Both the position numbers and the translations under genes were made by a program. From contig DAOVVL010000001.1 of the NCBI GenBank assembly GCA_030637205.1, forward strand, positions 1 through 37,506: a DNA stretch of 37,506 nt, in the 5' to 3' direction. The notes beneath the pieces are model-generated. The model was not told the DNA's origin. It searched no databases and worked only from the letters and a program-made list of their open reading frames with translations. This DNA comes from Thalassospiraceae bacterium (lineage in GTDB: Bacteria; Pseudomonadota; Alphaproteobacteria; Rhodospirillales; Magnetovibrionaceae). Positions 1-32,030 of the stretch are shown in pieces. Each line of letters begins with the position of its first letter. The stretch's first letter is position 1.

Positions 1-244
1 ACCTGGACGCAGGATATGAACCGGGTGGTTCCATTGATCGGCACAGGCAGCCCCGAGGGCAACGTAAGCGCGCGACAGGGCCAAACCTATATGGACGATG
101 CCGGGGGGGCTGGCGCTATCCTCTACACCAAGAAATCTGCCGATATCGGCGGAGACACAACCCAAGGATGGATACTGGTATGATGGACATTGCCAAAAAA
201 ACCGTTTCAGGTTACAAGAATGAACGGCCTTTGAATATTATCGA
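1..244. repeat. Terminal direct repeat, copy 1 (equals 37263..37506 except G107 vs T37369)
   Basis: Aligned the window start and end by eye. The 244 nt are identical apart from one base, giving a unit length of 37262 nt. Positions 1..183 duplicate the 3' part of CDS 37194..37445. Confidence 0.95.
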
Positions 245-3124: not shown

Positions 3125-5241
3125 TGGCAACCCAAGAGGAACTTTTGGCAGAAGCGCGACGCAGGGGCCTTGCACCGAGGCCATCGATTGATGAATTGCG
3201 CGCGGAGGCAAACCGCCGTGGCCTTACAACCCCGCAGGACATTCTCGAAACCCAACCGCAGGAGGCGATAACAGCCCCAGCCCCAACTATTGATCTGCCG
3301 GCGCCCACTGAGGACGCAGGTGTTCTGGAACAATTTGGAGCAGGATTCAGCCGTGGCGCACAAACGATCGGTCGTGGCTTGGGCTTGCTCGAACCTGAAA
3401 CTGAAGAAGAAAAAAAGCGTTTTGAAGCGCTTGGCAATGATTTTTTCGCTGCTTCGGTAGGTGAAATCGTAGGCGAAGCTCTCCCATTTGTCCCGCTGGC
3501 GGCCATTGGGCCTGCCGTTGGAGTCACGTCATTTATTGGTCGCGCGCTTATAGGCACGGGCTTGGGTGCCCTCGAGGGTGGCGTGATTACGCGCGGCAAG
3601 GGTGCAGAAGAAATTGAAACAGCTATTGGTGCTGGAATTGGCGGGACAATAGGTGGAGTTGCGGAGGCGCTTTTACCTTCATTTGGCCGTTTGGTGTCCC
3701 GCGTGTTTAAGAAAATTGGTCGCGCGCCAAAAGGTCAGCTCATCACCCCGGAAGGAACCCCCACCCCTGAATTTCAGGCGGCGCTTGACGAGACGGGGAC
3801 CAACTTTGATGATTTAACCAAGGAAGCGGTGGAAACCCTTTCCCGCGCGGCGCCCGGCACTGTGCCTGAACAAGCGGCGCGGCAGGCCCGCTTTGAAGCG
3901 CAGGGCATTCCCGCAACCACAGGCGACATCACACAAACCATGGCTGCCCAGACCGCAGAACAACGCGCGCTGTCTATGGCCACAGGCGAAGCCGGCGAAC
4001 CCCTGAGACAGTTGAAGCTGGAACAGAGCGAAGCATTCAAACGCCAGGTGAATCAATTGGTCGATTCCCTTGGCGTTCCATCAGAAACCGGCACTTCATT
4101 GAAGGCGGCGCTTGAAGGCAGAAAAAAGATTTTAACCACGCAAAAAAATGCGCTTTATCAGGAAGTCGCGGACGCTTCCCCTGAGGCTGCCAATTTCCCC
4201 ATCTTGACGGATACGATTGAGGACTCATTGCCTGACCGCAAAACATTGCGCCGCCTTTCCAGAATTGCAGGAAGCCAGATCGAAGGCGTTAAGGATCTGC
4301 TTGTTGAGTTTGGTATCGACAAAAGCGACGAAGCCCTGGAGCAATTTGTCAAAGATGGTGGCGAAGTAACCCCCCTCACGCTTGGCAATTTTGATGAGTT
4401 CCGGCAGGCGTTGGGCCAACTTGAAAGGGCTGATACAACGGGCGCCACAGGTGTTGCCATTCGCGGCATCCGTGATGCACTTGATAATGAAGCTGGGCTT
4501 ATTGATGATGCAGTGCAGGCCGCAGGCATTACCGATGAAAGCATTGTCAGCACCCTGAAGGCCGCGCGGGCCACGGTTCGAACAATCAAAACGGAGTTTT
4601 CCCCTCAATCAATCACAGGCCGCTTGATCGCCACAAAACGCGATGGCGTCACCCCTGTTATTGAAGCATCCAAGGCAGCCAATGAATTGTTGAAGCCGAC
4701 AGCACCGATTGAAAACTTGCAGCGCACCCTGCAAAGCCTCAAGGATTCCGGTTCGGTTGGATCAAGGGCAGTTGGTGATCTTCGCGCGTCTATTATTCTG
4801 GGAGCTTTGGATGCAGGACTGAAAGCCCCATCACGCAAAACAGCAGGCATTGAAACGATTGGCGGCAATCAGTTCGCCAAGTTCCTGAACAAGTTTGGCG
4901 ATGACAAACTGGAATTATTGTTCAGAGGCAACGAGGCGTCCTTGGATACTCTGAACAACCTGAGACAGACCGCGCTTGATATCACCCCGGCTGAACGCGC
5001 CACTCCCAAAGGTTCTGCTGCGGTTATTCTTGATCTTGTCAATCGGTTTGGCAGTATCCCAGGTCTTGCTGCCATCAGGGACGTCGGGAATCTTGTGATT
5101 AACGCTGGCGCCGATGAGCGCGCTGTGAGAAAAGCAATCAAGGCAAAGCCGGAAATCATTGAACAGATTTCCAAGTTGCGTGAGAGTTTTCCGGGTATCG
5201 TATCGGCACTTGGCGTACCAGTAGCATTGGAGCTTGAATAA
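3124..5241 (+). CDS. Large virion internal/ejection protein candidate (705 aa) with a glycine-zipper-like hydrophobic segment
   Basis: ATG overlaps the upstream stop (TAATG). The N-terminus has a duplicated motif, EELLAEARRRGLAP / DELRAEANRRGLTT. A G/A/I-rich hydrophobic stretch reads GPAVGVTSFIGRALIGTGLGALEGG...AIGAGIGGTIGG. It is the largest protein in the block, as in podovirus ejection proteins. Confidence 0.55.
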   Translation: MATQEELLAEARRRGLAPRPSIDELRAEANRRGLTTPQDILETQPQEAITAPAPTIDLPAPTEDAGVLEQFGAGFSRGAQTIGRGLGLLEPETEEEKKRFEALGNDFFAASVGEIVGEALPFVPLAAIGPAVGVTSFIGRALIGTGLGALEGGVITRGKGAEEIETAIGAGIGGTIGGVAEALLPSFGRLVSRVFKKIGRAPKGQLITPEGTPTPEFQAALDETGTNFDDLTKEAVETLSRAAPGTVPEQAARQARFEAQGIPATTGDITQTMAAQTAEQRALSMATGEAGEPLRQLKLEQSEAFKRQVNQLVDSLGVPSETGTSLKAALEGRKKILTTQKNALYQEVADASPEAANFPILTDTIEDSLPDRKTLRRLSRIAGSQIEGVKDLLVEFGIDKSDEALEQFVKDGGEVTPLTLGNFDEFRQALGQLERADTTGATGVAIRGIRDALDNEAGLIDDAVQAAGITDESIVSTLKAARATVRTIKTEFSPQSITGRLIATKRDGVTPVIEASKAANELLKPTAPIENLQRTLQSLKDSGSVGSRAVGDLRASIILGALDAGLKAPSRKTAGIETIGGNQFAKFLNKFGDDKLELLFRGNEASLDTLNNLRQTALDITPAERATPKGSAAVILDLVNRFGSIPGLAAIRDVGNLVINAGADERAVRKAIKAKPEIIEQISKLRESFPGIVSALGVPVALELE

Positions 5242-5242
5242 A

Positions 5243-7168
5243 ATGGGCAGAAACGTAAACCCCCGTCCACAGCTTTTGGACAGTGCAGGCGATCCGCTCA
5301 TAAGCGGCAAGATGTATTATTTTGAAAGCGGCACCGACACGCCCAAGGCCACGTTTGCAGATGTGAACATGACCATTCAGAATACGCATCCTGTTATTCT
5401 TACGGGCGATGGCAGGCTGCCCAATGTCTTTCTGAGCGGTACAGCGAGAATGAAACTCACTGATGCAGATGATGTACAGATTTGGGATATTGACCCGACC
5501 GGCGGTGAAGACATTGGCGGGGACTTTGAGGAATGGGTGCCTTCGGTTGTTTACAACACCAACGACATCGTTCAAGGGAGCGATGGCGCTTTTTATATTT
5601 CATTCACCAATGGCAATTTGGGGAACGATCCCACTTCCACGCCCACAGAATGGCAGGAAATCCAATTTATCAATATCTGGAACACGAATGTCACTTATCA
5701 GATTGGTGATACGGTCAAGGGATCGGATAATCTGTTTTATGTTTCTCAGACCGCCGATAATCAAGGGAATGATCCAACAAGCGACGCGGTTAATTGGGGG
5801 CCTCCATTTGATGGTGTTGTTTCAATAACAGGCGGCACTGGCATTACCGTTTCTGGAACTTCTTCTATCCCAATTGTAACCGCTGATAACAACGGCACTG
5901 TGACAAGTGTATCGGGCGGTACGGGCATTACGGTTGGCGGCACTGCCGCAGACCCTATTATTAATGCTGATAACAACGGTACAGTCACAAGCGTAAGCGG
6001 TGGCACAGGCATTACTATTTCAGGCACCGCATCTGACCCAATAGTTAATAATGATTTCCCTGAATTGCTTTCAGATACCACACCACAGCTTGGCGGGTTC
6101 CTTGATGCTAATGGCAAATACATTGGCCGTGATGTTGGCGCCGCTATTCCCTCGGCCAGCCCTTTGGTGCTAGGCACAGATGGTGACCATTTCTCAATTA
6201 CTGGCACGACTGGCTTTAGCGCCTTTACCGTTGCTGCTGGTAGGCATTTTACTTGCACATTTGCAGGCATCCTAACCATTACGGTTGGGGCAGGCATAAC
6301 CATTAACAATGATGGTGAAGATTACACAACAGCACCAGGCGATATTTTTGTCGGCCAATCAACAGCATCCAATGTGGTTACGGGGTATTTTATTAAAGCC
6401 GATGGTTCAGCTTTGGCCCCGCAAGTTTTATCCACCGGGTTTATCACCGGACTTGAAACCGCCAACAATACGATTGTTGATACTCTACATGATATTGATA
6501 TTACTGCGGGTGCGGCGCGTGATGCATCTGACACTGAAGATATGGTTTTGGCTTCCGCGTTAGGAAAACAGCTTGACGTAGCATGGGCGGTGGGCGGTAC
6601 TCCCGCTGCACCCCTTGGCGGTTTGGATACTGGCTCAATCGCCGCCGATAGCTGGTATTATGTATGGCTTATCAAGCGCACCGATACGGGCGTGGTTGAT
6701 GTTTTGTTTTCGTTATCATCCACCGCGCCAACGATGCCAGCCGATTACGACACCAAGCGTTTAATCTGGGCGGTTAAAACCAAAGTAGCAGCCACCGAAA
6801 TTGAACTTTATAAACAAATTGGTAATAGTCTTGAATGGGGAACAGACCAGCAAGATTTTAACGGAACAGGTAGCACCGGGGGCGCTTTATTAACGGTCAA
6901 GGCTCCCGTTCTTCCTGTTACTGCCAATGCCGCTATTTATATAAATAAGTCTACTACTGTGTTTGCCATAGTACAAAGCCCCGATAAAACAGCGGTAGTC
7001 CCCTCTGTATCCAATCTTGATATAATGGCTACCGGAGGGGCTGACCGCACCACGATAAACAAACCCATCTTAACGGATACAGGGCAGATATATCATAGGG
7101 TTAATATTGCTGCGACTACTTTTCAAATTATTATTAAAGGCTTTATCCTAGACAGGAGCATTATCTAA
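5243..7168 (+). CDS. Tail fibre / receptor-binding protein
   Basis: The N-terminus (LLDSAGDPLISGKMYYFESGTDTPKATFAD) is typical of phage tail-fibre anchors. Two CBM5/12-like W..Y..GD.V.....Y......G..P.....W repeats lie at 5534..5797. Three GGTGITVSGT...NNGTVTSVS repeats lie at 5831..6058. The C-terminal part is AT-rich. Confidence 0.75.
   Translation: MGRNVNPRPQLLDSAGDPLISGKMYYFESGTDTPKATFADVNMTIQNTHPVILTGDGRLPNVFLSGTARMKLTDADDVQIWDIDPTGGEDIGGDFEEWVPSVVYNTNDIVQGSDGAFYISFTNGNLGNDPTSTPTEWQEIQFINIWNTNVTYQIGDTVKGSDNLFYVSQTADNQGNDPTSDAVNWGPPFDGVVSITGGTGITVSGTSSIPIVTADNNGTVTSVSGGTGITVGGTAADPIINADNNGTVTSVSGGTGITISGTASDPIVNNDFPELLSDTTPQLGGFLDANGKYIGRDVGAAIPSASPLVLGTDGDHFSITGTTGFSAFTVAAGRHFTCTFAGILTITVGAGITINNDGEDYTTAPGDIFVGQSTASNVVTGYFIKADGSALAPQVLSTGFITGLETANNTIVDTLHDIDITAGAARDASDTEDMVLASALGKQLDVAWAVGGTPAAPLGGLDTGSIAADSWYYVWLIKRTDTGVVDVLFSLSSTAPTMPADYDTKRLIWAVKTKVAATEIELYKQIGNSLEWGTDQQDFNGTGSTGGALLTVKAPVLPVTANAAIYINKSTTVFAIVQSPDKTAVVPSVSNLDIMATGGADRTTINKPILTDTGQIYHRVNIAATTFQIIIKGFILDRSII
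5831..6058 (+). repeat. In-frame 84-nt tandem repeat (2.7 copies) inside the tail-fibre gene
   Basis: Units at 5831..5914, 5915..5998 and a partial unit at 5999..6058 encode GGTGITVSGTSSIPIVTADNNGTVTSVS, GGTGITVGGTAADPIINADNNGTVTSVS and GGTGITISGTASDPIVNNDF. Confidence 0.9.
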
Positions 7169-7886: not shown

Positions 7887-7973
7887 ATGGGACGCAAACC
7901 GAACGACGCTCGAAAACCTAAGCCTAAACCAAAACCCAAGCCCAAACCAAAAGGGAAGGGCAAACGTAAATGA
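7887..7973 (+). CDS. Possible 28-aa highly basic (KP)n peptide, MGRKPNDARKPKPKPKPKPKPKGKGKRK
   Basis: AAGGGGAA lies 5 nt upstream of the ATG. Its stop overlaps the next gene's start (ATGA). Confidence 0.3.
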   Translation: MGRKPNDARKPKPKPKPKPKPKGKGKRK

Positions 7974-8683
7974 TGGCTTTCGCTGCCATATTGATATGCG
8001 CCATAGAACTTTCGTTGGCCCATCTGCTCAACTTATCAAGTGAGCAGTATTTTACTGTATGGCAAATTGAGTTGGTGCTTCTCGCCCTTGTTGGGCTGAA
8101 ATCTGATGGCAGCCAAAGGGACCGATCTGTATTTGCAATATTTCTTTTGTGGTTTGGCTGGATTGCCGCGACAGATTGGGCGATTGATTATGCGGAACCG
8201 TTGCTTGTCCAATACGAGGCGGCGATTTTCAGTTCTCTGGTATTGTGGGCACTCGCCCGGCCATATCTTTATCCATCGGCAGAACTGGTTGGTGAAAACG
8301 TATTCATAGGATTTTACCAAGGAACCTACGCCCCATTTCTTTCGTCATTGGGGGCGCTTTTCGGCCTTCCATTTTCATCCATTGTGATCGCCAGCGGGAC
8401 CGTAGTATTGAGGGCCTCCAAAGTTGGAAAGCTGGTGACAAACAACATCGCCGTTGTGGGTAATGGAAACTATGTTTTCGTGGACACTGGCGTCAAAGCA
8501 ACCCCAGAAATATTTGCCACGATGGCTAAATGTTCCGGTCAACCAACTAAAGCTTTCGGCATATTTAGAACCAATTGTGTCAAGGGGTGCGGGCCTGTGC
8601 TTGAATTGTTAGGCCTAAAACCAAAGTCATGGCTTCACTATCTGCCATCAGTTTTCTATTACCAAGCCGTTAGGGGGACATAA
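7970..8683 (+). CDS. Multi-pass membrane protein (237 aa), holin candidate or other lysis-cassette membrane component
   Basis: About four hydrophobic helices fill the first ~110 aa, followed by a soluble Cys-containing C-terminal domain (..RTNCVKGCGPVLELLGL..). It lies directly upstream of the TM/coiled-coil proteins and the endolysin. Confidence 0.5.
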   Translation: MMAFAAILICAIELSLAHLLNLSSEQYFTVWQIELVLLALVGLKSDGSQRDRSVFAIFLLWFGWIAATDWAIDYAEPLLVQYEAAIFSSLVLWALARPYLYPSAELVGENVFIGFYQGTYAPFLSSLGALFGLPFSSIVIASGTVVLRASKVGKLVTNNIAVVGNGNYVFVDTGVKATPEIFATMAKCSGQPTKAFGIFRTNCVKGCGPVLELLGLKPKSWLHYLPSVFYYQAVRGT

Positions 8684-9015
8684 TGGCAAGTCCAGACACA
8701 CAGCCAGAATGGATTAAAGACGTAGTAATGTTTGCTGCTTTCGTGTTGACCATGCTTGGCATCCAATACAAAGCCAGCAAAGCTCATCGTGATAAAATAG
8801 AAGCTCTCGATGCTGATATAAAAGAAGCTGAAAAAAAAGCCGCCCAGGCAATTGCTGCCGCCGCAGAAACAGATGCAAAGCTTGCCCATTGTCGTCTTGA
8901 CGTTGAACAGAACTTTGCGCCACGCGATTATCTCAAAGATGCAGAGGTAAGACTTTTTGCAGTAATTAAGGAGATAAAGGGTGATATCCGCGCACTCAGA
9001 GAGTCGATAAAATGA
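8683..9015 (+). CDS. Single N-terminal TM plus coiled-coil protein (110 aa), holin/antiholin or i-spanin-like
   Basis: The TM segment is VVMFAAFVLTMLGI, followed by a charged helical region. ATG overlaps the upstream stop (TAATG). Confidence 0.5.
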   Translation: MASPDTQPEWIKDVVMFAAFVLTMLGIQYKASKAHRDKIEALDADIKEAEKKAAQAIAAAAETDAKLAHCRLDVEQNFAPRDYLKDAEVRLFAVIKEIKGDIRALRESIK

Positions 9016-9338
9016 CCATCAAAGAACTCGCAACAAACATGAAATTCTGGATTGCTGTGGGAGCTGCTGTAGCCGGCGTCCTTATCGCTTTGGGAATGGA
9101 AATTGACCGCCCCGCTTGGGCAAGCGATGTTGAGCCTCTAGAACAGCAAGTCGGCATGAATCAGAAGATGATCCTGCAGATCCAGATTGACCAAGTGCAA
9201 CGTTCAATTTGGGCACAGGAAGATCGCAACACCATGTCGCCAACGCAATCTGGCAAGGATCGACTCCGGGATATGGAATTGCATTTGAAGCGATTGCAGG
9301 ATCAAAAAGAGGCGCTGTCGGATAAGAAGGACGGCTGA
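9012..9338 (+). CDS. Single N-terminal TM plus coiled-coil protein (108 aa), i-spanin-like or holin-like
   Basis: The TM segment is FWIAVGAAVAGVLIALGM, followed by a Q/E/K-rich helical region. Starts and stops overlap on both sides (ATGA, TGATG). Confidence 0.5.
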   Translation: MTIKELATNMKFWIAVGAAVAGVLIALGMEIDRPAWASDVEPLEQQVGMNQKMILQIQIDQVQRSIWAQEDRNTMSPTQSGKDRLRDMELHLKRLQDQKEALSDKKDG

Positions 9339-9748
9339 TGCCAAAGTTTGGGCCAGCATCGACTGAGCGCCTTGCAACGTGTCACCCTGATATTCAGCTT
9401 GTTTTTAATCTTGCCATTCAGGAAGCGCCTGCTGATCTGGATTTTTCCATTGTTTGTGGCCGGCGCTCAAAGAAAGCCCAGAACAAAGCCTATGATGAAG
9501 GCAATTCCCATCTGAAATGGCCTGATGGGAAACACAATGTTGACCCCGACAATCCCCGTGATGAAGAATTCCCCGATAAAGCCCACGCGGTTGATGCTGT
9601 GCCTTGGCCAGAACTTTATGAACACATGGGAAAATTCAGGCGGCTGGCTGATCACATCAAGGCGATCGCCAAACGTGAGGGAATAGATTTGCATTGGGGC
9701 TGGGATTTATGGAATTGGGATCCGGCTCACTGGCAATTGGGAAAATGA
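9338..9748 (+). CDS. Endolysin, peptidase M15 (VanY / L-alanyl-D-glutamate peptidase-like)
   Basis: Family pattern present: CGRRSKKAQNKAY...GKH....AHAVDAVPW....IDLHWGWDLWNWDPAHWQL (Zn ligands H/D/H and the WGG-W...D..H-Q-L tail). No signal peptide. Confidence 0.8.
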   Translation: MPKFGPASTERLATCHPDIQLVFNLAIQEAPADLDFSIVCGRRSKKAQNKAYDEGNSHLKWPDGKHNVDPDNPRDEEFPDKAHAVDAVPWPELYEHMGKFRRLADHIKAIAKREGIDLHWGWDLWNWDPAHWQLGK

Positions 9749-9751
9749 TCG

Positions 9752-10642
9752 ATGGCAAACACTCTAATCGTGAATTGTGATGGCACATGGCTGAATGATA
9801 AGGATGCGCGCCCATCAAATGTGAGAAAGTACCACAATGTACTTTCACCCCGGAATCAATTGGCCCTATATCTGCCCGGTGTGGGCGCTGAGAGAGGCCA
9901 ATCACTTATCGGCAAGTGGTTGGGTGGGGCGTTTGGTTTAGGCGCTCACGGCCTCAGAAATCGGGCCTACAAATGGATTGCCCGCTATTGGAGACCAGGG
10001 GATAGGATTTGCCTTTCCGGGTTCTCACGGGGCAGCGCGGTGGCCAGAATGACCGCTGCATATATTTCCAAAAAGGGCATCAAATATCAGGGCAAAACCC
10101 ATTTCCCATCGATCGATTTTCTTGGGTGCTGGGATACGGTTGCATCATTTGGAATCCCCATCAATTTAGGCCCCATTCCATTTCAGCGCATTAATCTGTT
10201 TTCCAATCTGGAAGTTGGCCAGAACGTCAAGAATGCGGTTCATATTGTTGCCCTTGATGAAAACCGTGAGGGCTTCATTCCCAGCCTGATGAACAATCGC
10301 CCAGGCATAAATGAAATATGGGCCATTGGCACTCATTCTGATGTTGGGGGTGGTGAGCCTAATTCCGGCCTATCAGATATCACGCTTTCATACATGATGC
10401 GGGAAGCCCAGAAAGTCGGGGTGATGTTCAAGGATGATGCATTTGATGGCTTGGCGCCTAATCCTGATGGCACAATCCATGTCCACAAGTTCAATCCCAA
10501 GCCTGGGGTTCGGACAGTTCATGTTCTGAAAAATGATGCGGTGAGTGGGTTAAGCCCCAAGGTGCATATTTCAGCAACCACCCGGCAGAATTACAAACCG
10601 CTTTCCAAGGTTGATATGGGGCGCGTTCAGATTGTGCCTTGA
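9752..10642 (+). CDS. DUF2235 / Tle1-like alpha-beta hydrolase (putative phospholipase)
   Basis: Family hallmarks present: N-terminal LIVNCDGTW, nucleophile elbow LSGFSRGSAVAR (GxSxG), FLGCWDTVASFG and GTHSDVGGG. It starts 3 nt after the endolysin stop and is the last gene of the rightward late transcription unit. Confidence 0.75.
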   Translation: MANTLIVNCDGTWLNDKDARPSNVRKYHNVLSPRNQLALYLPGVGAERGQSLIGKWLGGAFGLGAHGLRNRAYKWIARYWRPGDRICLSGFSRGSAVARMTAAYISKKGIKYQGKTHFPSIDFLGCWDTVASFGIPINLGPIPFQRINLFSNLEVGQNVKNAVHIVALDENREGFIPSLMNNRPGINEIWAIGTHSDVGGGEPNSGLSDITLSYMMREAQKVGVMFKDDAFDGLAPNPDGTIHVHKFNPKPGVRTVHVLKNDAVSGLSPKVHISATTRQNYKPLSKVDMGRVQIVP

Positions 10643-11572: not shown

Positions 11573-11887
11573 CTAAACGACAGACCCGTGCATCAAGCCG
11601 GGATAACCCCAGCCCGAATGAACACGCGGGTCTTTCTTCGGTTCCATTTCTCGTTTCAACGCATCAAGCTGGCGGCGCGAACAGACAAGAACGGTCTTGT
11701 TGTTCAGCATGAATGGTTCGCCATCCACAAATTCCGGGTATTTGGCTTCGATGTACGGCGTGATTGGCAACCACCGGGCAAGCCACTTGATCACGGGATG
11801 CACCGGGAACTGGCGTGTTCGCATCTTTCCCGTTGCTACTTGCGGCCACGGCTCAAATACCTGCACTTTCACTCCAAACACATCCAT
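11573..11887 (-). CDS. Hypothetical protein (104 aa, start MDVFGVKV)
   Basis: The track ORF extends to 12052, but that extension overlaps the upstream gene. ATG 11887 has GAGGG 7 nt upstream. Confidence 0.55.
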   Translation of the reverse strand: MDVFGVKVQVFEPWPQVATGKMRTRQFPVHPVIKWLARWLPITPYIEAKYPEFVDGEPFMLNNKTVLVCSRRQLDALKREMEPKKDPRVHSGWGYPGLMHGSVV

Positions 11888-11900
11888 CAGAAAACCCTCG

Positions 11901-24472: not shown

Positions 24473-24544
24473 CACATGAAACATTTTGCCAATTAACAAA
24501 AATCAGGTTAACCTCTGCTCCATCCATATTCAGGAGCATTAGCC
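24473..24544 (+). promoter_or_regulatory. Putative late-operon promoter/operator region
   Basis: This gap lies between the terminator and the first late gene. It has a GTTTCA-CA-TGAAAC inverted repeat at 24469..24482 and TTGCCA at 24486..24491. No convincing -10 was found. Confidence 0.25.
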
Positions 24545-25819: not shown

Positions 25820-26192
25820 AGCTACCGGGAACCCAAACGGACGGCCACCTTTCAAGCCAACGGCTGAGGAGAGAAAGACTGTTGAAATGATGGGGGCTGT
25901 CGGGGTGCCACAGGCAAGCATCGCCATGTGCATAAGGGACGGGATAGACGTCAAAACTCTCAAGGAACATTTCGGACCCGAATTAAAAACGGCCCTGATC
26001 AAAGCCAATGCGAAGGTAGCCGGCGCCATGTTCAACAAGGCAATCAAGGGTGACGTCGGCGCAGGACGCTTCTGGCTCAATTGCCGCGCGGGCTGGAAAG
26101 AAACCAACGTCAATGAAATGACCGGGAATCCTGTGGTCAATCAGTTTGTGTTTGTCCCGATGGGGGTCGACGATGAACCAAATAAAGATTGA
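25809..26192 (+). CDS. Terminase small subunit candidate
   Basis: A 127-aa basic N-terminus with an HTH-like segment (VGVPQASIAMCIRDGIDVKTLKEHF), immediately upstream of and overlapping TerL. Confidence 0.6.
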   Translation: MARKATGNPNGRPPFKPTAEERKTVEMMGAVGVPQASIAMCIRDGIDVKTLKEHFGPELKTALIKANAKVAGAMFNKAIKGDVGAGRFWLNCRAGWKETNVNEMTGNPVVNQFVFVPMGVDDEPNKD

Positions 26193-27681
26193 ATACGTCC
26201 AGAACCTCCATCCCATATTCACCAAAGAAAAGCGCATTAAGATCATTGTTGGCGGGCGCGGTTCGTCCAAGTCAACTGGCGTGGCGGATTATGTGGCGGC
26301 CAAAGTATCAAGCGGGGAATTGTGGTGCTGCGCGCGTGAGACCCAGAACTCCATTGAGGAAAGCGTACACCGCACGTTGCTTGAGGAAATCGAGCGCCTT
26401 GGCATATATGGATTCGAGGATACCAAGACCGGAATTAAGCACCTCGACACCGGGGGCCGCACGTTCTACCGGGGGCTATCGCGCAACATTACAGCCCTGA
26501 AGTCCACCCTATCGGGCATTGACGGCCTGTGGATTGAGGAAGGCGAGGACATATCCCACGACACGCTTAGGGTTCTCACCGCCTCTGTGCGCTTGAATGC
26601 GACCGATACAGCCCGCAAGATCGCCGGCGAAGAGGTCAAGCTTCCTGAGATCATCATCACCATGAACCGAGGCACACGGGCTGGGGCTATCGCTGAGAAA
26701 TGGTTGGCCCGAGCTGAACGGGATCTGGGGCGCTGTGGGTTCTACGAAGACGAAAACATTATGGTAGTCGAAATGAACTATACCGATATGCCGAAGGGAT
26801 GGTTTCTTGAGTCGGGTCTGGAATCGGAGCGCCGAGACGACGAAGAGAAAATGTCGCGGGCGGAATATGACCACAAATGGGGGGGCGCCTATCTGGATGA
26901 AATCGAGGGAACGATTATCAAAACCGAGTGGTTCGACGCCGCGATCGATGCTCACCTAAAGCCCAACCTTGTCGAAGTATTCAAGCCCCATGGTTCCATT
27001 ATCGCCTCGCATGATCCGTTCGATGACGGGAACGACGCCGGGGGCTTCGCCACACGCCACGGCTCAATCATCACACAGGTGGATTCCAAGACCTCGGGTG
27101 AGATCGATGAGGTCTGTGATTGGGCCACAGGGCTGGCTATTGCTGCTGGGGCGGATTGGTTCACATGGGATGGGGATGGCATGGGAACGGGCCTCAAGCG
27201 CCAGGTGGCCCTCGCATTCGAGGGGACCAAGACCAAGTACCACATCTTCAAGGGGTCTCTGTCTGGATTAGGACAGGACAACGCCAAGAGGATATATATG
27301 CCTGAGGGTGGGGATAAGGACACCAAGCCCAAGAATTACGCCCAAACCTTCAAGAACAACCGTGCGCAGTATTATTCCGAACTGGCCCGGCGGTTTTTCA
27401 ACACCTACAACTGCGTGGTGAAGGGCAAATATGTGGACCCCGACGATATGATCAGCCTCGCCAGCGCGGGCATTGAGGATATGACAGGCCTCAGAACCCA
27501 GCTTTGCCGCATCCCGCGCAAGCCGAATGGAACGGGTCTGGTCCAGATCATGAGCAAGGTGGAAATGGCCAAATTAAAAATCTCTTCCCCAAACGAGGGG
27601 GACGCGGTTATGATGAGCCTGTTTTCGCCAACCGAGGCAGCCCAATTCAAGGGCCTAGATTTTGATGGATGGAATGGTTGA
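26173..27681 (+). CDS. terL: Terminase large subunit
   Basis: Walker A VGGRGSSKST and Walker B GLWIEEGED, with a C-terminal nuclease-like half. ATG 26173 was chosen because GGGGG lies upstream, but the track start at 26146 is also possible. Confidence 0.88.
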   Translation: MNQIKIEYVQNLHPIFTKEKRIKIIVGGRGSSKSTGVADYVAAKVSSGELWCCARETQNSIEESVHRTLLEEIERLGIYGFEDTKTGIKHLDTGGRTFYRGLSRNITALKSTLSGIDGLWIEEGEDISHDTLRVLTASVRLNATDTARKIAGEEVKLPEIIITMNRGTRAGAIAEKWLARAERDLGRCGFYEDENIMVVEMNYTDMPKGWFLESGLESERRDDEEKMSRAEYDHKWGGAYLDEIEGTIIKTEWFDAAIDAHLKPNLVEVFKPHGSIIASHDPFDDGNDAGGFATRHGSIITQVDSKTSGEIDEVCDWATGLAIAAGADWFTWDGDGMGTGLKRQVALAFEGTKTKYHIFKGSLSGLGQDNAKRIYMPEGGDKDTKPKNYAQTFKNNRAQYYSELARRFFNTYNCVVKGKYVDPDDMISLASAGIEDMTGLRTQLCRIPRKPNGTGLVQIMSKVEMAKLKISSPNEGDAVMMSLFSPTEAAQFKGLDFDGWNG

Positions 27682-29894
27682 TGGTAGATTTTGCTGACCA
27701 CCAAGAAGTTGTGACGCTTTTCAATGAGGCGCAACGTGTTGAAATCGACAACCGAGCGCGCGCGGCAGATGCCCATAGTTTCATCGACGACCCGAGCGGC
27801 CAGTGGGAAACCAACTTCACCACTGACGACAAAAAGCCCCGCTATACCTTCGACCTTACCAACCCCATCGTTGAGCAGATTGCCGGCGAAATGGAGCAGG
27901 CCGACTTCGATATCCGCATCAAACCAGCCGGCGGCGAAGCCACCAAAGACGACGCCCAGCTAATCGATGGCATGATCCGGAATATCGAAAACATATCCAG
28001 CGCCTCAGATATCTTTAATGCGTCCGGGCGCAGCATGGTAACGGCAGGGATCGACGGGTGGCGCGTGGAGCAGAGATTTGTCGACCACAACAGCTTTGAC
28101 CAAGACCTGGTTATCGCCCCCCTTCTGGACTTTGCCAACCGGGTCTGGTTCGATCCCAACGCCAGGAAGCAGGACAAATCCGACGCCAAATATTGCTTTG
28201 TGATCCAGCCCATCGGCAAAGAGGAATATAAGGAAAAGTTCCCCGAAGGCTCGGAGCAATCAGTGAGCGGCAACAACGGCTCGATCTGCTCCACCACTTC
28301 AAACGCCGAATGGGGCTACAAGCCTGACGATATCTTCATTGGCCAGATTTATTTCAAGAAGGAAGTGAAGCGCGATATCCACCTGCTATCCGATGGCCGG
28401 GTGGTTGAGGACGATGAGGACTTTGCAAAGATCAAAGACGACTTGGCCTTGAACGGAATCGTTGTCGAGCAAACCCGCAGCCGTCCCAAGATTGTTGTGG
28501 TATCACGCCTGTTCGATGCAAACGATTGGCTGATTGGCCCAGAAGAAACTGTGTTCAGTTGGATTCCTGTGGTCCCGACCTACGGCAACTACAAAATCAA
28601 CCGCAACAAAACCATGTATCGCGGCGTGGTCCAGAAGCTGATGGATCCCCAGCGCGTGATGAATTACAGCCTGAGCCGTGAGATTGAGGAAGGCGCCCTT
28701 GCCCCCCGCGCCAAGTTCTGGATGACTACCAAACAGGTGGCTGGCTTCGAAGACACAATCCAGACCTTGAACACCAACGCAAACCCGGTTCAGCTTTACA
28801 ACTTTGATTCCGACGTCCCCGGCATTCCCGGCACCACCGGCGGCGCGACAGTGAACCCCGGCCTTCGCACCATATCGCTGGCCATGAAGGATATGATCAG
28901 CTTTTCGGCTGGTTTGTTCGCGGCCAATATGGGGGACAACCCCGGCCTGCAATCAGGCATTGCTATTGAACGGCTGCAGAACAAGGGTGACACCGGCACC
29001 ATTAACTATTTCCAATCCCAAGAAATCGCCATCTGCCACACCGCGCGCATCCTGATTGATGCGTTGCCCAAGGTCTACGATACCAAGCGCCAGGTTCGCA
29101 TCCTAAAAGAGGACGGCTCGTTCGATATGAAGATGTTGAACGATATGGAACTCGACCAGGAAACCCAAGAAATGGTCAAGGTCAACGACCTATCCAAAGG
29201 CAAGTACGACGTGACCTGTTCCGCCGGCCCATCGTTCCAGAACAGGCAGCAGGAAGCTGTCACGGGCATTGTCGAGGCATCCAGCGTCAATCCGGAAATC
29301 AGCTTGGTCGGCAGCGATATCCTGATGAAGAACATGACCTTCCCCGGATCCGAACAGATTGGCGATCGCTTGAGGGCGCAGCTATTTGACCAAGGCATGA
29401 TCCCGGTCGATCAGATGACGGACGAAGAAAAAGAAGAAATGCTGGCCGCTCAACAGGCGAGGGAAGAGCAGGGCGACCAACCCACTCCGGACCAGATGAT
29501 CGGCGAGGCCGAGCTTATCAAGGCCCAGAACGAACAGGACAAGACCCAGATCAGCGTTGAGGAAAAGAGCCAGAATATCCTGCTGGCCCAGAACAAGGAA
29601 CGCCGCGAGGACGCCAAGTTCAGGGAATCGGTGAGAAGCGGCGCCGCTACCTTCGCCCAGACCGAACAGCAGAACCAGTTCGAGCGCATCGCCGCTACCC
29701 AGAAGCAGCAATCAGTGGATCAACAGGCTTTGCTTGATTCGGTGAAGACCATGGCCGAGACCCTGAAGCTCATCCAGGAGGCCGCCCAAGGCCCCGTGGT
29801 GGGGCCGGGCTTCGTCAGCAACGTCAAGGAGCAGTCCGATCTTGTGACGGACGCCCAAGACGCTGTTGAACATGGTGCGGTTAATCTTCCCTAA
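27669..29894 (+). CDS. Portal protein (P22 gp1-like size and position)
   Basis: 741 aa, overlapping the TerL stop, with the Q/E-rich helical C-terminal extension typical of P22-type portals. Confidence 0.8.
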   Translation: MEWLMVDFADHQEVVTLFNEAQRVEIDNRARAADAHSFIDDPSGQWETNFTTDDKKPRYTFDLTNPIVEQIAGEMEQADFDIRIKPAGGEATKDDAQLIDGMIRNIENISSASDIFNASGRSMVTAGIDGWRVEQRFVDHNSFDQDLVIAPLLDFANRVWFDPNARKQDKSDAKYCFVIQPIGKEEYKEKFPEGSEQSVSGNNGSICSTTSNAEWGYKPDDIFIGQIYFKKEVKRDIHLLSDGRVVEDDEDFAKIKDDLALNGIVVEQTRSRPKIVVVSRLFDANDWLIGPEETVFSWIPVVPTYGNYKINRNKTMYRGVVQKLMDPQRVMNYSLSREIEEGALAPRAKFWMTTKQVAGFEDTIQTLNTNANPVQLYNFDSDVPGIPGTTGGATVNPGLRTISLAMKDMISFSAGLFAANMGDNPGLQSGIAIERLQNKGDTGTINYFQSQEIAICHTARILIDALPKVYDTKRQVRILKEDGSFDMKMLNDMELDQETQEMVKVNDLSKGKYDVTCSAGPSFQNRQQEAVTGIVEASSVNPEISLVGSDILMKNMTFPGSEQIGDRLRAQLFDQGMIPVDQMTDEEKEEMLAAQQAREEQGDQPTPDQMIGEAELIKAQNEQDKTQISVEEKSQNILLAQNKERREDAKFRESVRSGAATFAQTEQQNQFERIAATQKQQSVDQQALLDSVKTMAETLKLIQEAAQGPVVGPGFVSNVKEQSDLVTDAQDAVEHGAVNLP

Positions 29895-30129
29895 GCGGAA
29901 GGTGAAAGACCATCCCGTTCGCACAGGTGCCTGAGATGGCGTATTTGCCCTCGTAATACCATTTGTATGGCTCACCGTTGCAGAACGTGCCGCGCAAGGA
30001 AGCGGATTTTTCAACATGACCATTGAGCTTCCAGTTTTCATAATCGGCGCGGTCGGAATCGATGGTGTTTTTATCTGCGGCACAGGCTGAAAGCGCCAGT
30101 GCAAGCAGAATGACGGATAAATGTTTCAA
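29881..30129 (-). CDS. Lipoprotein (82 aa precursor)
   Basis: TTG start is coupled to the HNH stop (TTGA) with AAGGAG 7 nt upstream. The signal peptide and lipobox read KHLSVILLALALSAC, with Ala at +2 after the lipidated Cys. The mature part has 3 further Cys. Confidence 0.65.
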   Translation of the reverse strand: MKHLSVILLALALSACAADKNTIDSDRADYENWKLNGHVEKSASLRGTFCNGEPYKWYYEGKYAISGTCANGMVFHLPLRED

Positions 30130-30470
30130 TTTGTTTCTCCTTTGGTTGATTGAGGAAGTTCCGTTTGGCATGGGTGTTCGCTTGCTTCGATAAGCGCCAT
30201 CATTGCCACTTTGTGGTCTTCTGGCGTTGCTTCGCCGCGGCTGGAATTACAGTAATGGCAGGCCCTCACGATATTGTCCCTACGGGTGCCCCCATCAACC
30301 CGACGAATAAGATGTTCGTCTGAAGCCAAGCGCCAGTACAAAAGCCTTCTTGCGAACCGGGCGCCTTTCATGATCCCAAACCGCTTCCGCGCTTGGTGCT
30401 TGGTGCATAGCTTTTTGCTCCACATTTCCTGGCCACAATAAAAGCAAGTCTCAAACATCAGTTTCCCCAT
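30126..30470 (-). CDS. HNH endonuclease
   Basis: CFYCGQE......SDEHLIRRVDGGTRRDNIVRACHYCNSSRG is a canonical HNH core. The start may instead be ATG 30458. Confidence 0.8.
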   Translation of the reverse strand: MGKLMFETCFYCGQEMWSKKLCTKHQARKRFGIMKGARFARRLLYWRLASDEHLIRRVDGGTRRDNIVRACHYCNSSRGEATPEDHKVAMMALIEASEHPCQTELPQSTKGETN

Positions 30471-30618
30471 ATCCAGCCTTGGTTAAAAGGAATTTGGACC
30501 GGTTCATGCGGCCTCTGGCCTTGTCGATCGCCTCAAGGGTCTTGGGCGGGATGCTGATGGATAGCTTGATAACTGGCCCACCGGGCTTCTTGGGTCGGCC
30601 TGGCTTGCGTTTGGCCAT
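30451..30618 (-). CDS. AT-hook plus ribbon-helix-helix (CopG-like) DNA-binding protein (55 aa)
   Basis: Not in the ORF track. MAKRKPGRPKKPGG is an AT-hook-like segment, followed by VIKLSISIPPKTLEAIDKARGRMNRSKFL (RHH beta-strand and helix pattern). It is tightly coupled to both neighbours. Confidence 0.55.
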   Translation of the reverse strand: MAKRKPGRPKKPGGPVIKLSISIPPKTLEAIDKARGRMNRSKFLLTKAGYGETDV

Positions 30619-30620
30619 GG

Positions 30621-30902
30621 TCAATCCCCCCCGGTCAAGGTAGCTAAAAAGTCCTGCTTGGACACCTCAAGAAGGGCCACGACTTCACTGGCTCGCAAAT
30701 CTGATAAAAACCATTTTACAAGATACCCAGCGCCAGGCTTGGCTTTGTTTGGAGGGTCGGTATCCAAGGATATAACCATGAGTTTGTCTGGCTTTATTTC
30801 GCCTGCCTCAATGGCCTTGATGGCGTCTTTCAACGTATCAATCGGAGAAATGAGGGTGTTGTCATTTTTGATATCGGCCATGTGTATGATGTTATCAGCC
30901 AT
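30621..30902 (-). CDS. Hypothetical protein (93 aa, start MADNIIHM)
   Basis: ORF collinear with the reverse-strand island. No motif recognised. Confidence 0.55.
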   Translation of the reverse strand: MADNIIHMADIKNDNTLISPIDTLKDAIKAIEAGEIKPDKLMVISLDTDPPNKAKPGAGYLVKWFLSDLRASEVVALLEVSKQDFLATLTGGD

Positions 30903-31065
30903 AAGATTTCTTCGCTCCAAAAGTTATATCGCGGGCCGGGCTTGATACCGACTGACATGGATTGCTGACCGTCATGCGCCGCTTGTGGCGTCTTACATCC
31001 AAGTACCGTGTCGCTTCATCTGCTGTGTGTCCTTCCACACCGCCGCGATAAATGCTCGCTTTCAT
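30895..31065 (-). CDS. Possible small HTH protein (56 aa, ..HTADEATRYLDVRRHKRRMT..)
   Basis: Not in the ORF track. Weak excisionase/MerR-like HTH pattern. The SD is poor (GGAG 11 nt upstream). Confidence 0.25.
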   Translation of the reverse strand: MKASIYRGGVEGHTADEATRYLDVRRHKRRMTVSNPCQSVSSPARDITFGAKKSYG

Positions 31066-31123
31066 TGACCAATTAACTCCATACCAAAACCCGTCTATTT
31101 AGTCAACACCGAAATTGAACGGT

Positions 31124-31152
31124 TTGACACATTAACCAAGTAGTGGTTAAAC
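31124..31152 (+). promoter_or_regulatory. Candidate promoter with an embedded perfect palindrome upstream of scaffold/coat
   Basis: TTGACA lies at 31124..31129, followed by a 17-nt spacer and TTAAAC at 31147..31152. The spacer contains TTAACCA-N5-TGGTTAA (31132..31150). Confidence 0.35.
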
Positions 31153-31199
31153 TTCCCCCACGCCAATAATGGCGGTGAATCCTACCTATTGAGGGCAAT

Positions 31200-32030
31200 A
31201 TGACCGAAAATACCGCGCTGCAAGCAGAAGATGAACAGAATGGGGAAGCCCAGGCTGCAAAAGCTCCTGCCGAAGCCACCGAATCAGCACCGGTGGGCAA
31301 TGAGGACGACAATCTAAACGACAACACCGATCAGGAAGAAGGCGGCGAAGCGAAAGCTGCGCCTTTCTCCCCTGAACAACAGGCCATTTTCGATAACGCG
31401 ATTGGCAAGAAAGTCGGAGCGACCAGGGCCGCCGAACGACGGGCGGAGGCAGCCGAAGCAAGGGCTGCTGAATTGGAAGCCAATCAACCTATCGAAACCC
31501 GGCCCGATATCCCGCCGATGCCGGATCAATTCGCCGACGGTTTCGACGAAAAGTTAAAGGCACGGGACCAGGCAATCGCCAAAGCATCCGCGTTCGATAC
31601 CCGGCAAGAAGAAGCCAGAACGCGGCAGGAAGGCCTAGACCAACAGGCCACCACTGAGCGCCAGCAAGCCGTTACGACCGTGATCAATACCTACACTGAC
31701 AGGGCCGCAAAATTGGGCATCACGCCTGATGAGCTGGAAAAGTCAGGCCAAGCGGTCGGTGCATACGGATTGAATGACGCTGTCACCCTTCACATCCTTG
31801 GAGATGAAAAAGGGCCGGCGATCACAAAATTCCTTGCTGAAAACCCGATTGCCATGGACAAGCTGAATGGAATGAACCCCATGCAAGCCGCTGCCCATAT
31901 CGAAAGTGTTGTCAAACCAGCCGCCCTCAAAATGAAGAAAACCACCAATGCACCGCCCCCCTCAACGAATCTTGATGGCGGGGGTTCACCCCCATCTGAG
32001 CGTGGCCCGAAAGGAGCTACGTTCGAATAA
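31200..32030 (+). CDS. Scaffolding protein candidate
   Basis: A 276-aa acidic, A/E/Q-rich helical protein between portal and coat. GAGGG SD upstream. Confidence 0.6.
   Translation: MTENTALQAEDEQNGEAQAAKAPAEATESAPVGNEDDNLNDNTDQEEGGEAKAAPFSPEQQAIFDNAIGKKVGATRAAERRAEAAEARAAELEANQPIETRPDIPPMPDQFADGFDEKLKARDQAIAKASAFDTRQEEARTRQEGLDQQATTERQQAVTTVINTYTDRAAKLGITPDELEKSGQAVGAYGLNDAVTLHILGDEKGPAITKFLAENPIAMDKLNGMNPMQAAAHIESVVKPAALKMKKTTNAPPPSTNLDGGGSPPSERGPKGATFE

Follow-up and report, generated by a model that had tools for sequence, protein, structure and literature searches.

A putative layered accessory cassette on the opposite strand between the portal and scaffold genes of a P22-like podophage

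Why is the structural operon of a phage interrupted by a handful of small genes on the opposite strand, and did those genes arrive together? The question is raised by a locus between the portal and scaffold genes in a 37,506-bp stretch of DNA (hereafter the window), which is the whole of contig C2 of a metagenome-assembled genome. The first 244 bp of the window (1-244) recur at its end (37263-37506) with 99.6% identity, so the contig represents a phage genome of ~37.26 kb that is either closed or circularly permuted; the window is the complete genome of a P22-like podophage (~37.3 kb). An initial annotation had placed four or five tightly coupled reverse-strand genes, listed as five open reading frames (ORFs), between portal and scaffold, and had read them as a moron or homing cassette. 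All five ORFs were found where it had placed them, and both flanking genes were confirmed by profile matches. The idea of accessory cargo in a variable slot held, but comparison with a sister phage indicated that the cargo is not one insertion: it comprises three layers with different histories. We put at roughly 60% the probability that the locus is a layered accessory cassette, in which a resident pair of genes, encoding a ribbon-helix-helix (RHH) protein and a lipoprotein, has a mobile HNH nuclease gene between them, the promoter-proximal ORFs have been swapped, and the late promoter has been duplicated.

The sister phage is represented in the same assembly by a contig of 6,992 bp (C79). 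It is 88.5% identical to the window at the DNA level from the late promoter through terL and portal, and 94% identical over the scaffold promoter and the 5' end of scaffold; the two portal proteins are 95% identical. In C79 the lipoprotein and RHH genes are directly adjacent and, by pairwise alignment, the HNH gene is absent; in the window it is carried by a segment that C79 lacks (Table 1). Identity between the two phages around this segment is 83-94%. The segment is bounded by an imperfect 8-nt direct repeat, GGGGAAAC (30461-30468) and GGAGAAAC (30133-30140), and C79 carries a single GGAGAAAC at its RHH-lipoprotein junction. Each copy of the repeat serves as the Shine-Dalgarno (SD)-like element of the next gene, and the insertion alters just the final one or two residues of the RHH protein. 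When longer repeats, direct or inverted, were sought around the island as a whole, only short pairs at chance level were found.

The genes on either side of the HNH segment were compared between the two phages using Nei-Gojobori estimates of dN/dS and dS. The ratio was 0.058 for the mature part of the lipoprotein and 0.069 for the RHH gene, with a dS of ~0.6 in each case; the corresponding values were 0.055 and 0.66 for portal, and 0.037 and 0.40 for TerL (dN 0.015). The portal-like dS and low dN/dS imply that the lipoprotein and RHH genes are old residents under purifying selection. On these estimates, both are real, constrained genes that diverged alongside the structural genes and were present in the common ancestor with the sister phage.

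The promoter-proximal part of the island is a replaced block, bordered on one side by the RHH start codon and on the other by a TTGACT hexamer. Within this block, sliding identity between the window and C79 falls to ~50%, compared with 85-97% outside it, and the two ORFs that it holds in the window, orf93 and orf56, are replaced in C79 by unrelated ORFs. The 110-aa gene of the C79 island (6009-6341, reverse strand) has a 70% identical homologue in the window (11576-11896, reverse strand), where it belongs to a different module, a leftward operon; this implies that accessory genes move between slots.

Coding capacity was assessed from codon usage, with log-odds scores derived from the window's long genes; real frames had a mean score of 0.29. 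The scores of orf93 (0.34, the highest of the five cassette ORFs), the RHH gene (0.24) and the lipoprotein gene (0.16) support native coding sequence. The HNH gene (0.03) and orf56 (0.02) both fall at the 5th percentile of real frames, and the low score of the HNH gene suggests a foreign origin. The score of orf56 is borderline, being below the 95th percentile of wrong frames, and its product had no family match in Pfam, PHROG or NCBIfam, so the helix-turn-helix reading given to it in the initial annotation found no support; orf56 may be an untranslated 5' leader instead of a gene. An RNA element in the orf56 region was considered and rejected (no Rfam match; fold no better than shuffles, z 0.74), as were forward-strand ORFs antisense to the island, all of which had negative coding scores. 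For orf93, a search of 5.8 billion proteins returned only orf93 itself, and its nearest neighbours in the ESM Atlas were unnamed viral clusters (score 0.91).

As judged from the gene boundaries, the packing of the cassette is operon-like. There is an 8-nt overlap between orf56 and orf93, a 2-nt gap between orf93 and the RHH gene, an 8-nt overlap between the RHH and HNH genes (counting from the second ATG of the latter), and a 4-nt overlap between the HNH and lipoprotein genes. AT skew over the island is -0.146, against +0.15 to +0.28 in the flanks, a change of sign that is expected because the genes lie on the opposite strand.

The best account of these observations would be a cargo operon on the reverse strand, with translational coupling between its four or possibly five genes and a build of three layers. 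The first layer would consist of a small DNA-binding protein and an outer-membrane-type lipoprotein, inherited from the common ancestor and maintained by purifying selection. The second would be the 328-bp HNH gene, placed exactly between the resident pair, re-using the duplicated SD-like 8-mer and overlapping both neighbours; it may have been gained by this phage or lost by its sister, and packaging would not need it. The third would be formed by orf93 and the doubtful orf56, exchanged for unrelated genes in the sister. Because the late operon is broken by the cassette, a second copy of the late promoter, with the same hexamers and the same 19-bp palindrome, would serve scaffold and coat.

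Table 1. Positions of the genes, segments and regulatory sites discussed; coordinates refer to the window except in the last row, where they refer to loci of relatives
Feature	Position	Strand	Basis or remark
Lipoprotein gene, 82-aa precursor	29881-30129	-	TTG start, lipobox LSAC
HNH nuclease gene, 110 aa	30126-30458	-	alternative upstream ATG at 30470 would give 114 aa
AT-hook-like/RHH protein gene, 55 aa	30451-30618	-	sequence pattern and sub-threshold RHH_1 match
orf93	30621-30902	-	codon score
orf56 (doubtful)	30895-31065	-	ORF only
328-bp segment with HNH gene, in window only, absent from C79	30141-30468	-	pairwise alignment
Replaced block, 488 bp	30613-31100	.	C79 has unrelated 736 bp with ORFs of 81, 110 and 50 aa
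Divergent control region, conserved	31101-31199	.	92% identical to C79
Reverse-strand -35-like TTGACT	31101-31106	-	sequence
Scaffold promoter-like site, TTGACA-18-TAAACT	31124-31153	+	promoter scan, 10/12 match
Perfect palindrome TTAACCAAGTAGTGGTTAA	31132-31150		within forward promoter spacer; palindrome search
Main late promoter-like site, TTGCCA-17-TAACCT	24486-24514	+	identical in C79
TerL	26146-27681		Terminase_3 (P22-type terminase)
P22-type portal, left border of slot	27669-29894	+	PF16510 E 1.4e-128; phrog_156 E 5e-109
Scaffold gene, right border of slot	31200-32030	+	phrog_8865 E 3e-27
P22-type coat gene	32048-33328		PF11651 E 5e-52
Large slot ORFs in IMG/VR relatives	L026:2793-4355, L038:2234-3559, L067:2154-5096, L011:7432-10731	+	

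The identity of the HNH protein was established through its family. Alone, the window protein matched HNH_5 at E 7e-5 with 23.1 bits, below the Pfam cutoff of 27.5, and it matched PHROG HNH families down to E 2e-6. A k-mer search for relatives produced no candidate; only an exhaustive search of representatives did so, returning 190 at E <=1e-3, nearly all of 90-160 aa and the best of them 56% identical. A tblastn search against GenBank phages gave no match. An alignment of 34 family sequences retains CxxC, EH, DGG, N, CxxCN, R and H. The catalytic residues H49 (in EH), N62 and N71 are invariant or nearly so, and within the zinc pairs C5/C8 and C67/C70 the residues C5, C8 and C70 are invariant and position 67 is Cys or His; these motifs correspond to an H-N-N zinc-finger nuclease core. 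Most of the aligned sequences (27/34) match Pfam HNH or HNH_5 (PF01844 / PF14279), and the family profile matches a small phage HNH in the PDB (4h9d, E 6.8e-7). By its conserved motifs, the gene product is an HNH endonuclease-family protein of the zinc-finger H-N-N type. Its 110 residues align end-to-end with the family (an HNH core and a short C-terminal helix), and no extra DNA-recognition domain was detected in this alignment.

The initial annotation had offered two roles for this protein, a mobile endonuclease or a packaging-associated HNH. Its relatives in IMG/VR occupy varied positions. The closest (45% identity) are directly upstream of terS/terL, one lies between a lambda-type portal and a protease-capsid fusion gene (L103:1792-2125), and two are directly upstream of an 824-aa ORF with a LAGLIDADG (intein-like) domain (L099:3933-4166, L101:4001-4234); others are near another TerL, beside an integrase and beside AAA ATPases. 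Such varied contexts, together with the precise junction and the polymorphism between the two phages for presence or absence of the gene, are what a selfish, free-standing nuclease gene would be expected to show. As is required of a homing gene, the HNH gene is present in one and absent from the other of two collinear close relatives, with a precise junction. Most likely, then, it encodes a free-standing nuclease of the homing type and is selfish, mobile and dispensable; the first of the two suggested roles is supported by its absence from a sister phage with intact flanks. The related proposal of an RHH-regulated HNH as a designed unit is unlikely, since the HNH gene is a separate 328-bp segment between older genes.

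In phages, genes for homing endonucleases are concentrated close to essential genes and at the boundaries of exchanged segments (PMC10448857), and T4-type phages carry free-standing HNH genes (PMC2988022). The gene in the window resembles such free-standing homing genes (T4 mobA-E and the I-HmuI type; PMC2988022, PMC2790892, PMC10448857) in its insertion between conserved genes, its presence/absence polymorphism, its precise junctions, the proximity of essential structural genes and its foreign-looking composition. It differs from them in that its 110-aa product is a nuclease core only and its nearest relatives are <=56% identical; its cleavage specificity and homing are predicted at most.

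The second role, in which the protein would assist terminase and portal in the manner of HK97 gp74, appears highly unlikely. The protein shares its size class, its zinc-finger HNH core and its location in a head and packaging module with the HNH nickases gp74 and Geobacter Gmet_0936 (the source of PDB 4h9d). The positions of its closest relatives beside terS/terL, and of another beside a portal gene, also favour a packaging function, and many phages encode HNH proteins beside cos and terminase genes (PMC3592412). However, the HNH gene of the window is not beside terS/terL: it is 2.4 kb downstream of terL and in the opposite orientation, and its other relatives are in non-packaging contexts. 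The sister phage does without the gene although its TerL and portal are nearly the same, and the gene is single-copy in the assembly. The terminase is of the P22/Terminase_3 type, and P22-type headful packaging is not known to need an HNH.

The initial annotation had also argued that scaffold and coat, being cut off by the island, need their own promoter, and a forward promoter-like site was indeed found in the conserved divergent control region upstream of scaffold. This site and the one that precedes the late genes align over ~38 nt, and both are conserved in C79. They have a common architecture: TTG(C/A)CA is followed by ATTAAC-N9-GTTAA, which runs into a TAA(C/A)CT -10 element. The late-promoter site, which contains the other copy of the palindrome (24493-24511), precedes the first late gene (24545) by 31 nt. 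The genome has just these two matches to TTAAC-N9-GTTAA (24493 and 31132), where 0.02 chance matches are expected. The palindrome is probably an operator or activator site of the late genes, and the site in front of scaffold and coat resembles a duplicate of the late promoter. A consensus scan gave no convincing forward terminator, so some transcription may also read through into scaffold from upstream. On the reverse strand, the candidate TTGACT-17-TATGGA has a weak -10 and was not listed by the promoter scan.

The RHH protein, which is 93% identical to its C79 copy, is a putative regulator of this divergent control region, and possibly of both palindromes. It begins with a basic arm with a GRP core, KRKPGRPKKPGG, which includes P-G-R-P-K-K. 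The arm is followed by an RHH pattern, consisting of the alternating strand IKLSISI, a helix, G-R-M-N-R-S (a G-x-x-N-R-S cap) and a second helix. The match to RHH_1 (PF01402) is sub-threshold (E 0.0033; 17.8 bits against a cutoff of 20.5). No Pfam match to AT_hook (PF02178) was found at E <=0.1, and no PDB sequence matched the protein. An AlphaFold2 (AF2) monomer model has a single long helix (residues 25-47; pLDDT 75), and the strand-helix-helix topology is unresolved in this monomer. P22 Arc and Mnt and the CopG-type repressors share with this protein a size of ~55 aa, a strand-helix-helix pattern, an N-terminal basic arm and a location beside a divergent promoter region; unlike theirs, its family assignment falls below the Pfam threshold, and the GRP-core (AT-hook-like) arm is absent from Arc and Mnt.

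These features bear on a different explanation, in which the resident pair would be lineage-core regulators or effectors, with the RHH protein repressing both late promoters via the palindrome, for example, and the lipoprotein being needed for the phage cycle. This is unlikely, though it has points in its favour: both genes co-diverged with portal under equally strong purifying selection, the lipoprotein family comprises 14 clusters and occurs on phage-sized contigs, and the palindrome is confined to the cores of both late promoters, with one copy adjoining the RHH gene. On the other hand, both genes are absent from all relatives with <=56% portal identity and from the GenBank phages searched, and binding of the RHH protein to the palindrome is only a prediction. 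The spacing of the half-sites, 14 bp centre to centre, is moreover wider than in the classic RHH operators of Arc, Mnt and CopG. A bolder and somewhat less probable proposal is that the AT-hook/RHH protein binds the palindrome at both late promoters. The antisense cassette would then be a built-in device that slows or times late transcription, linked to a new phage lipoprotein family that alters the host envelope (exclusion), with the HNH gene parasitising the conserved pair.

The layered cassette was next set against the same slot in other phages. The initial annotation had looked to related genomes for adjacency of portal and scaffold, and this was found in three cultured phages, Vibrio phages 234P9 and 1.211.A and Shewanella phage X14, in which the gap is 38-114 nt. 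In ~60 IMG/VR and GTDB loci whose portals are 47-56% identical to that of the window, the two genes are separated by as little as 12 nt and as much as 4.6 kb; about a third of these loci have them adjacent. Many uncultured relatives hold a single large forward ORF of 441-1099 aa in the slot (Table 1). Two of these ORFs were scanned; one has an LPD23 polyvalent-protein domain and the other a methyltransferase domain, and the large ORFs may encode head-packaged, injected proteins. A few relatives carry small reverse-strand ORFs, some with signal peptides. None of the ~60 loci has a homologue of any island gene. The variable size of the gap and the differing cargo mark the portal-scaffold junction, across the loci compared, as a cargo hot spot, in which the cassette of the window appears specific to a narrow lineage. 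In Pseudoalteromonas phage H6/1, the closest cultured relative (37% portal identity), the slot is occupied by four small genes, unrelated to the cassette but also on the reverse strand. These genes (gp05-gp08; 4789-5478) include a Cys-rich 71-aa protein, an ORF that is HTH (helix-turn-helix)-like by eye and a membrane peptide, and none is homologous to the genes of the window.

At the portal end of the slot, the lipoprotein gene reads as it had been described: a TTG start within a TTGA overlap with the HNH stop codon, an AAGGAG SD element 7 nt upstream of the TTG at 30129, an LSAC lipobox, and a 14-nt convergent overlap with the 3' end of portal (portal stop at 29894; lipoprotein stop at 29881-29883). 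The precursor begins with the n-region MKH, followed by a hydrophobic stretch and the lipobox with Cys16. This basic n-region, hydrophobic h-region and lipobox constitute the pattern of a predicted signal peptidase II substrate. Homologues were found in ENA, Logan and NCBI data as 14 clusters of 59-94% identity. Several lie on contigs of 16-37.5 kb, the longest of which, at 35.6-37.5 kb, match a complete phage genome in size. In all 15 family members the lipobox, Cys16, C50, C69 and a C-terminal block are invariant. Position +2 is occupied by A, S or M in these members, with no case of Asp, from which sorting to the outer membrane is predicted by the E. coli rule.

Similarity searches with the lipoprotein gave no match in Pfam, PHROG, NCBIfam or PDB sequences, none by tblastn against GenBank phages, and none with the family alignment in IMG/VR, GTDB genomes or JGI metagenomes. 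The AF2 model, of medium confidence (pLDDT 68), has a helix followed by a three-stranded sheet. With a model at that pLDDT, Foldseek returned nothing from the PDB at E <=0.001, and a wide VIA-align search returned nothing at Z >=5, its top rows being generic helix-plus-sheet folds. On the evidence of its members, the protein belongs to a new, phage-restricted family. A role at the host envelope, such as superinfection exclusion or receptor masking, is plausible by analogy with Llp of T5 and Cor of phi80 and N15 (PMC9586334), which are likewise small phage lipoproteins with an outer-membrane-type signal and conserved cysteines. In contrast to that likeness, the comparisons of sequence, profile and fold revealed no similarity to either Llp or Cor, and the lipoprotein gene is not beside a receptor-binding protein gene.

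The lipoprotein could alternatively be an o-spanin missing from the lysis cassette and encoded far from its i-spanin partner. The lysis cassette (7970-10642, forward strand) does contain two transmembrane (TM)/coiled-coil proteins and no lipoprotein, and the outer-membrane-type lipobox and conserved Cys of the protein would suit such a role, as would a faint PHROG match to an Rz-like spanin (E 0.045). That match is not significant, however, and the lipoprotein gene belongs to another operon, ~20 kb from the lysis cassette and opposite to it in orientation. The mature protein is not rich in proline, and its predicted fold is a helix and a small sheet. A complex prediction for the mature lipoprotein with the two TM/coiled-coil lysis proteins scored 0.02, which counts neither way. 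Gene position and composition make an o-spanin function highly unlikely.

The layered cassette has its nearest parallels in phage morons, such as lambda bor and lom, and in the hypervariable slots of lambdoid and P22-like phages. In these, too, extra genes lie between genes that are adjacent in relatives. Morons share with the cassette an orientation opposite to the late operon, an envelope lipoprotein and a content that varies between close relatives; lambda bor is itself a reverse-strand lipoprotein gene. The cassette departs from them in being a multi-gene operon with no terminator detected and no promoter confidently identified, in the stable inheritance of its lipoprotein and RHH genes, and in its position, as the portal-scaffold junction is not known as a classic site for morons in P22, Sf6 or lambda.

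Several points weigh against the layered cassette or parts of it. The lipoprotein and RHH genes are, by the substitution estimates, conserved enough for lineage-core functions instead of those of dispensable 'morons', and the RHH assignment is made from a below-threshold Pfam match and a sequence pattern. The HNH difference may run in either direction: a deletion in C79, mediated by the 8-nt repeat, would explain it equally well, making the gene a loss there and not a gain here. The HNH protein is also minimal for a homing enzyme, having neither a recognisable DNA-recognition domain nor a known target site, unlike the characterised enzymes. The lipoprotein has no detectable similarity to any known exclusion protein. 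Finally, no reverse-strand promoter passed the scan and no terminator was found after the lipoprotein gene, so independent expression of the cassette is conjectural.

If the layered reading is correct, the locus would be a clean natural example of a structural operon that tolerates cargo, with a resident pair, a nuclease gene inserted with nucleotide precision and a duplicated late promoter that restores downstream expression. It would represent ordinary phage mosaicism, unusually well documented by the HNH-less sister, and would not overturn current understanding. It also identifies the portal-scaffold junction as a hot spot for cargo across a large uncultured clade, where other members have polyvalent-protein genes at the junction. 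The most useful leads are the duplicated, palindrome-bearing late promoter and the new phage-restricted lipoprotein family (15 members), a candidate for superinfection exclusion in marine-type P22-like phages.

No closer relatives were found in JGI metagenomes (best portal identity 53%), and a scan of IMG/VR with the scaffold protein gave no matches. A further contig of the assembly, C254, is together with C79 a piece of the second, related phage; terL-portal DNA is 88% identical to the window and the coat protein 84% identical, and the presence of these fragments indicates that two sister phages share one bin.

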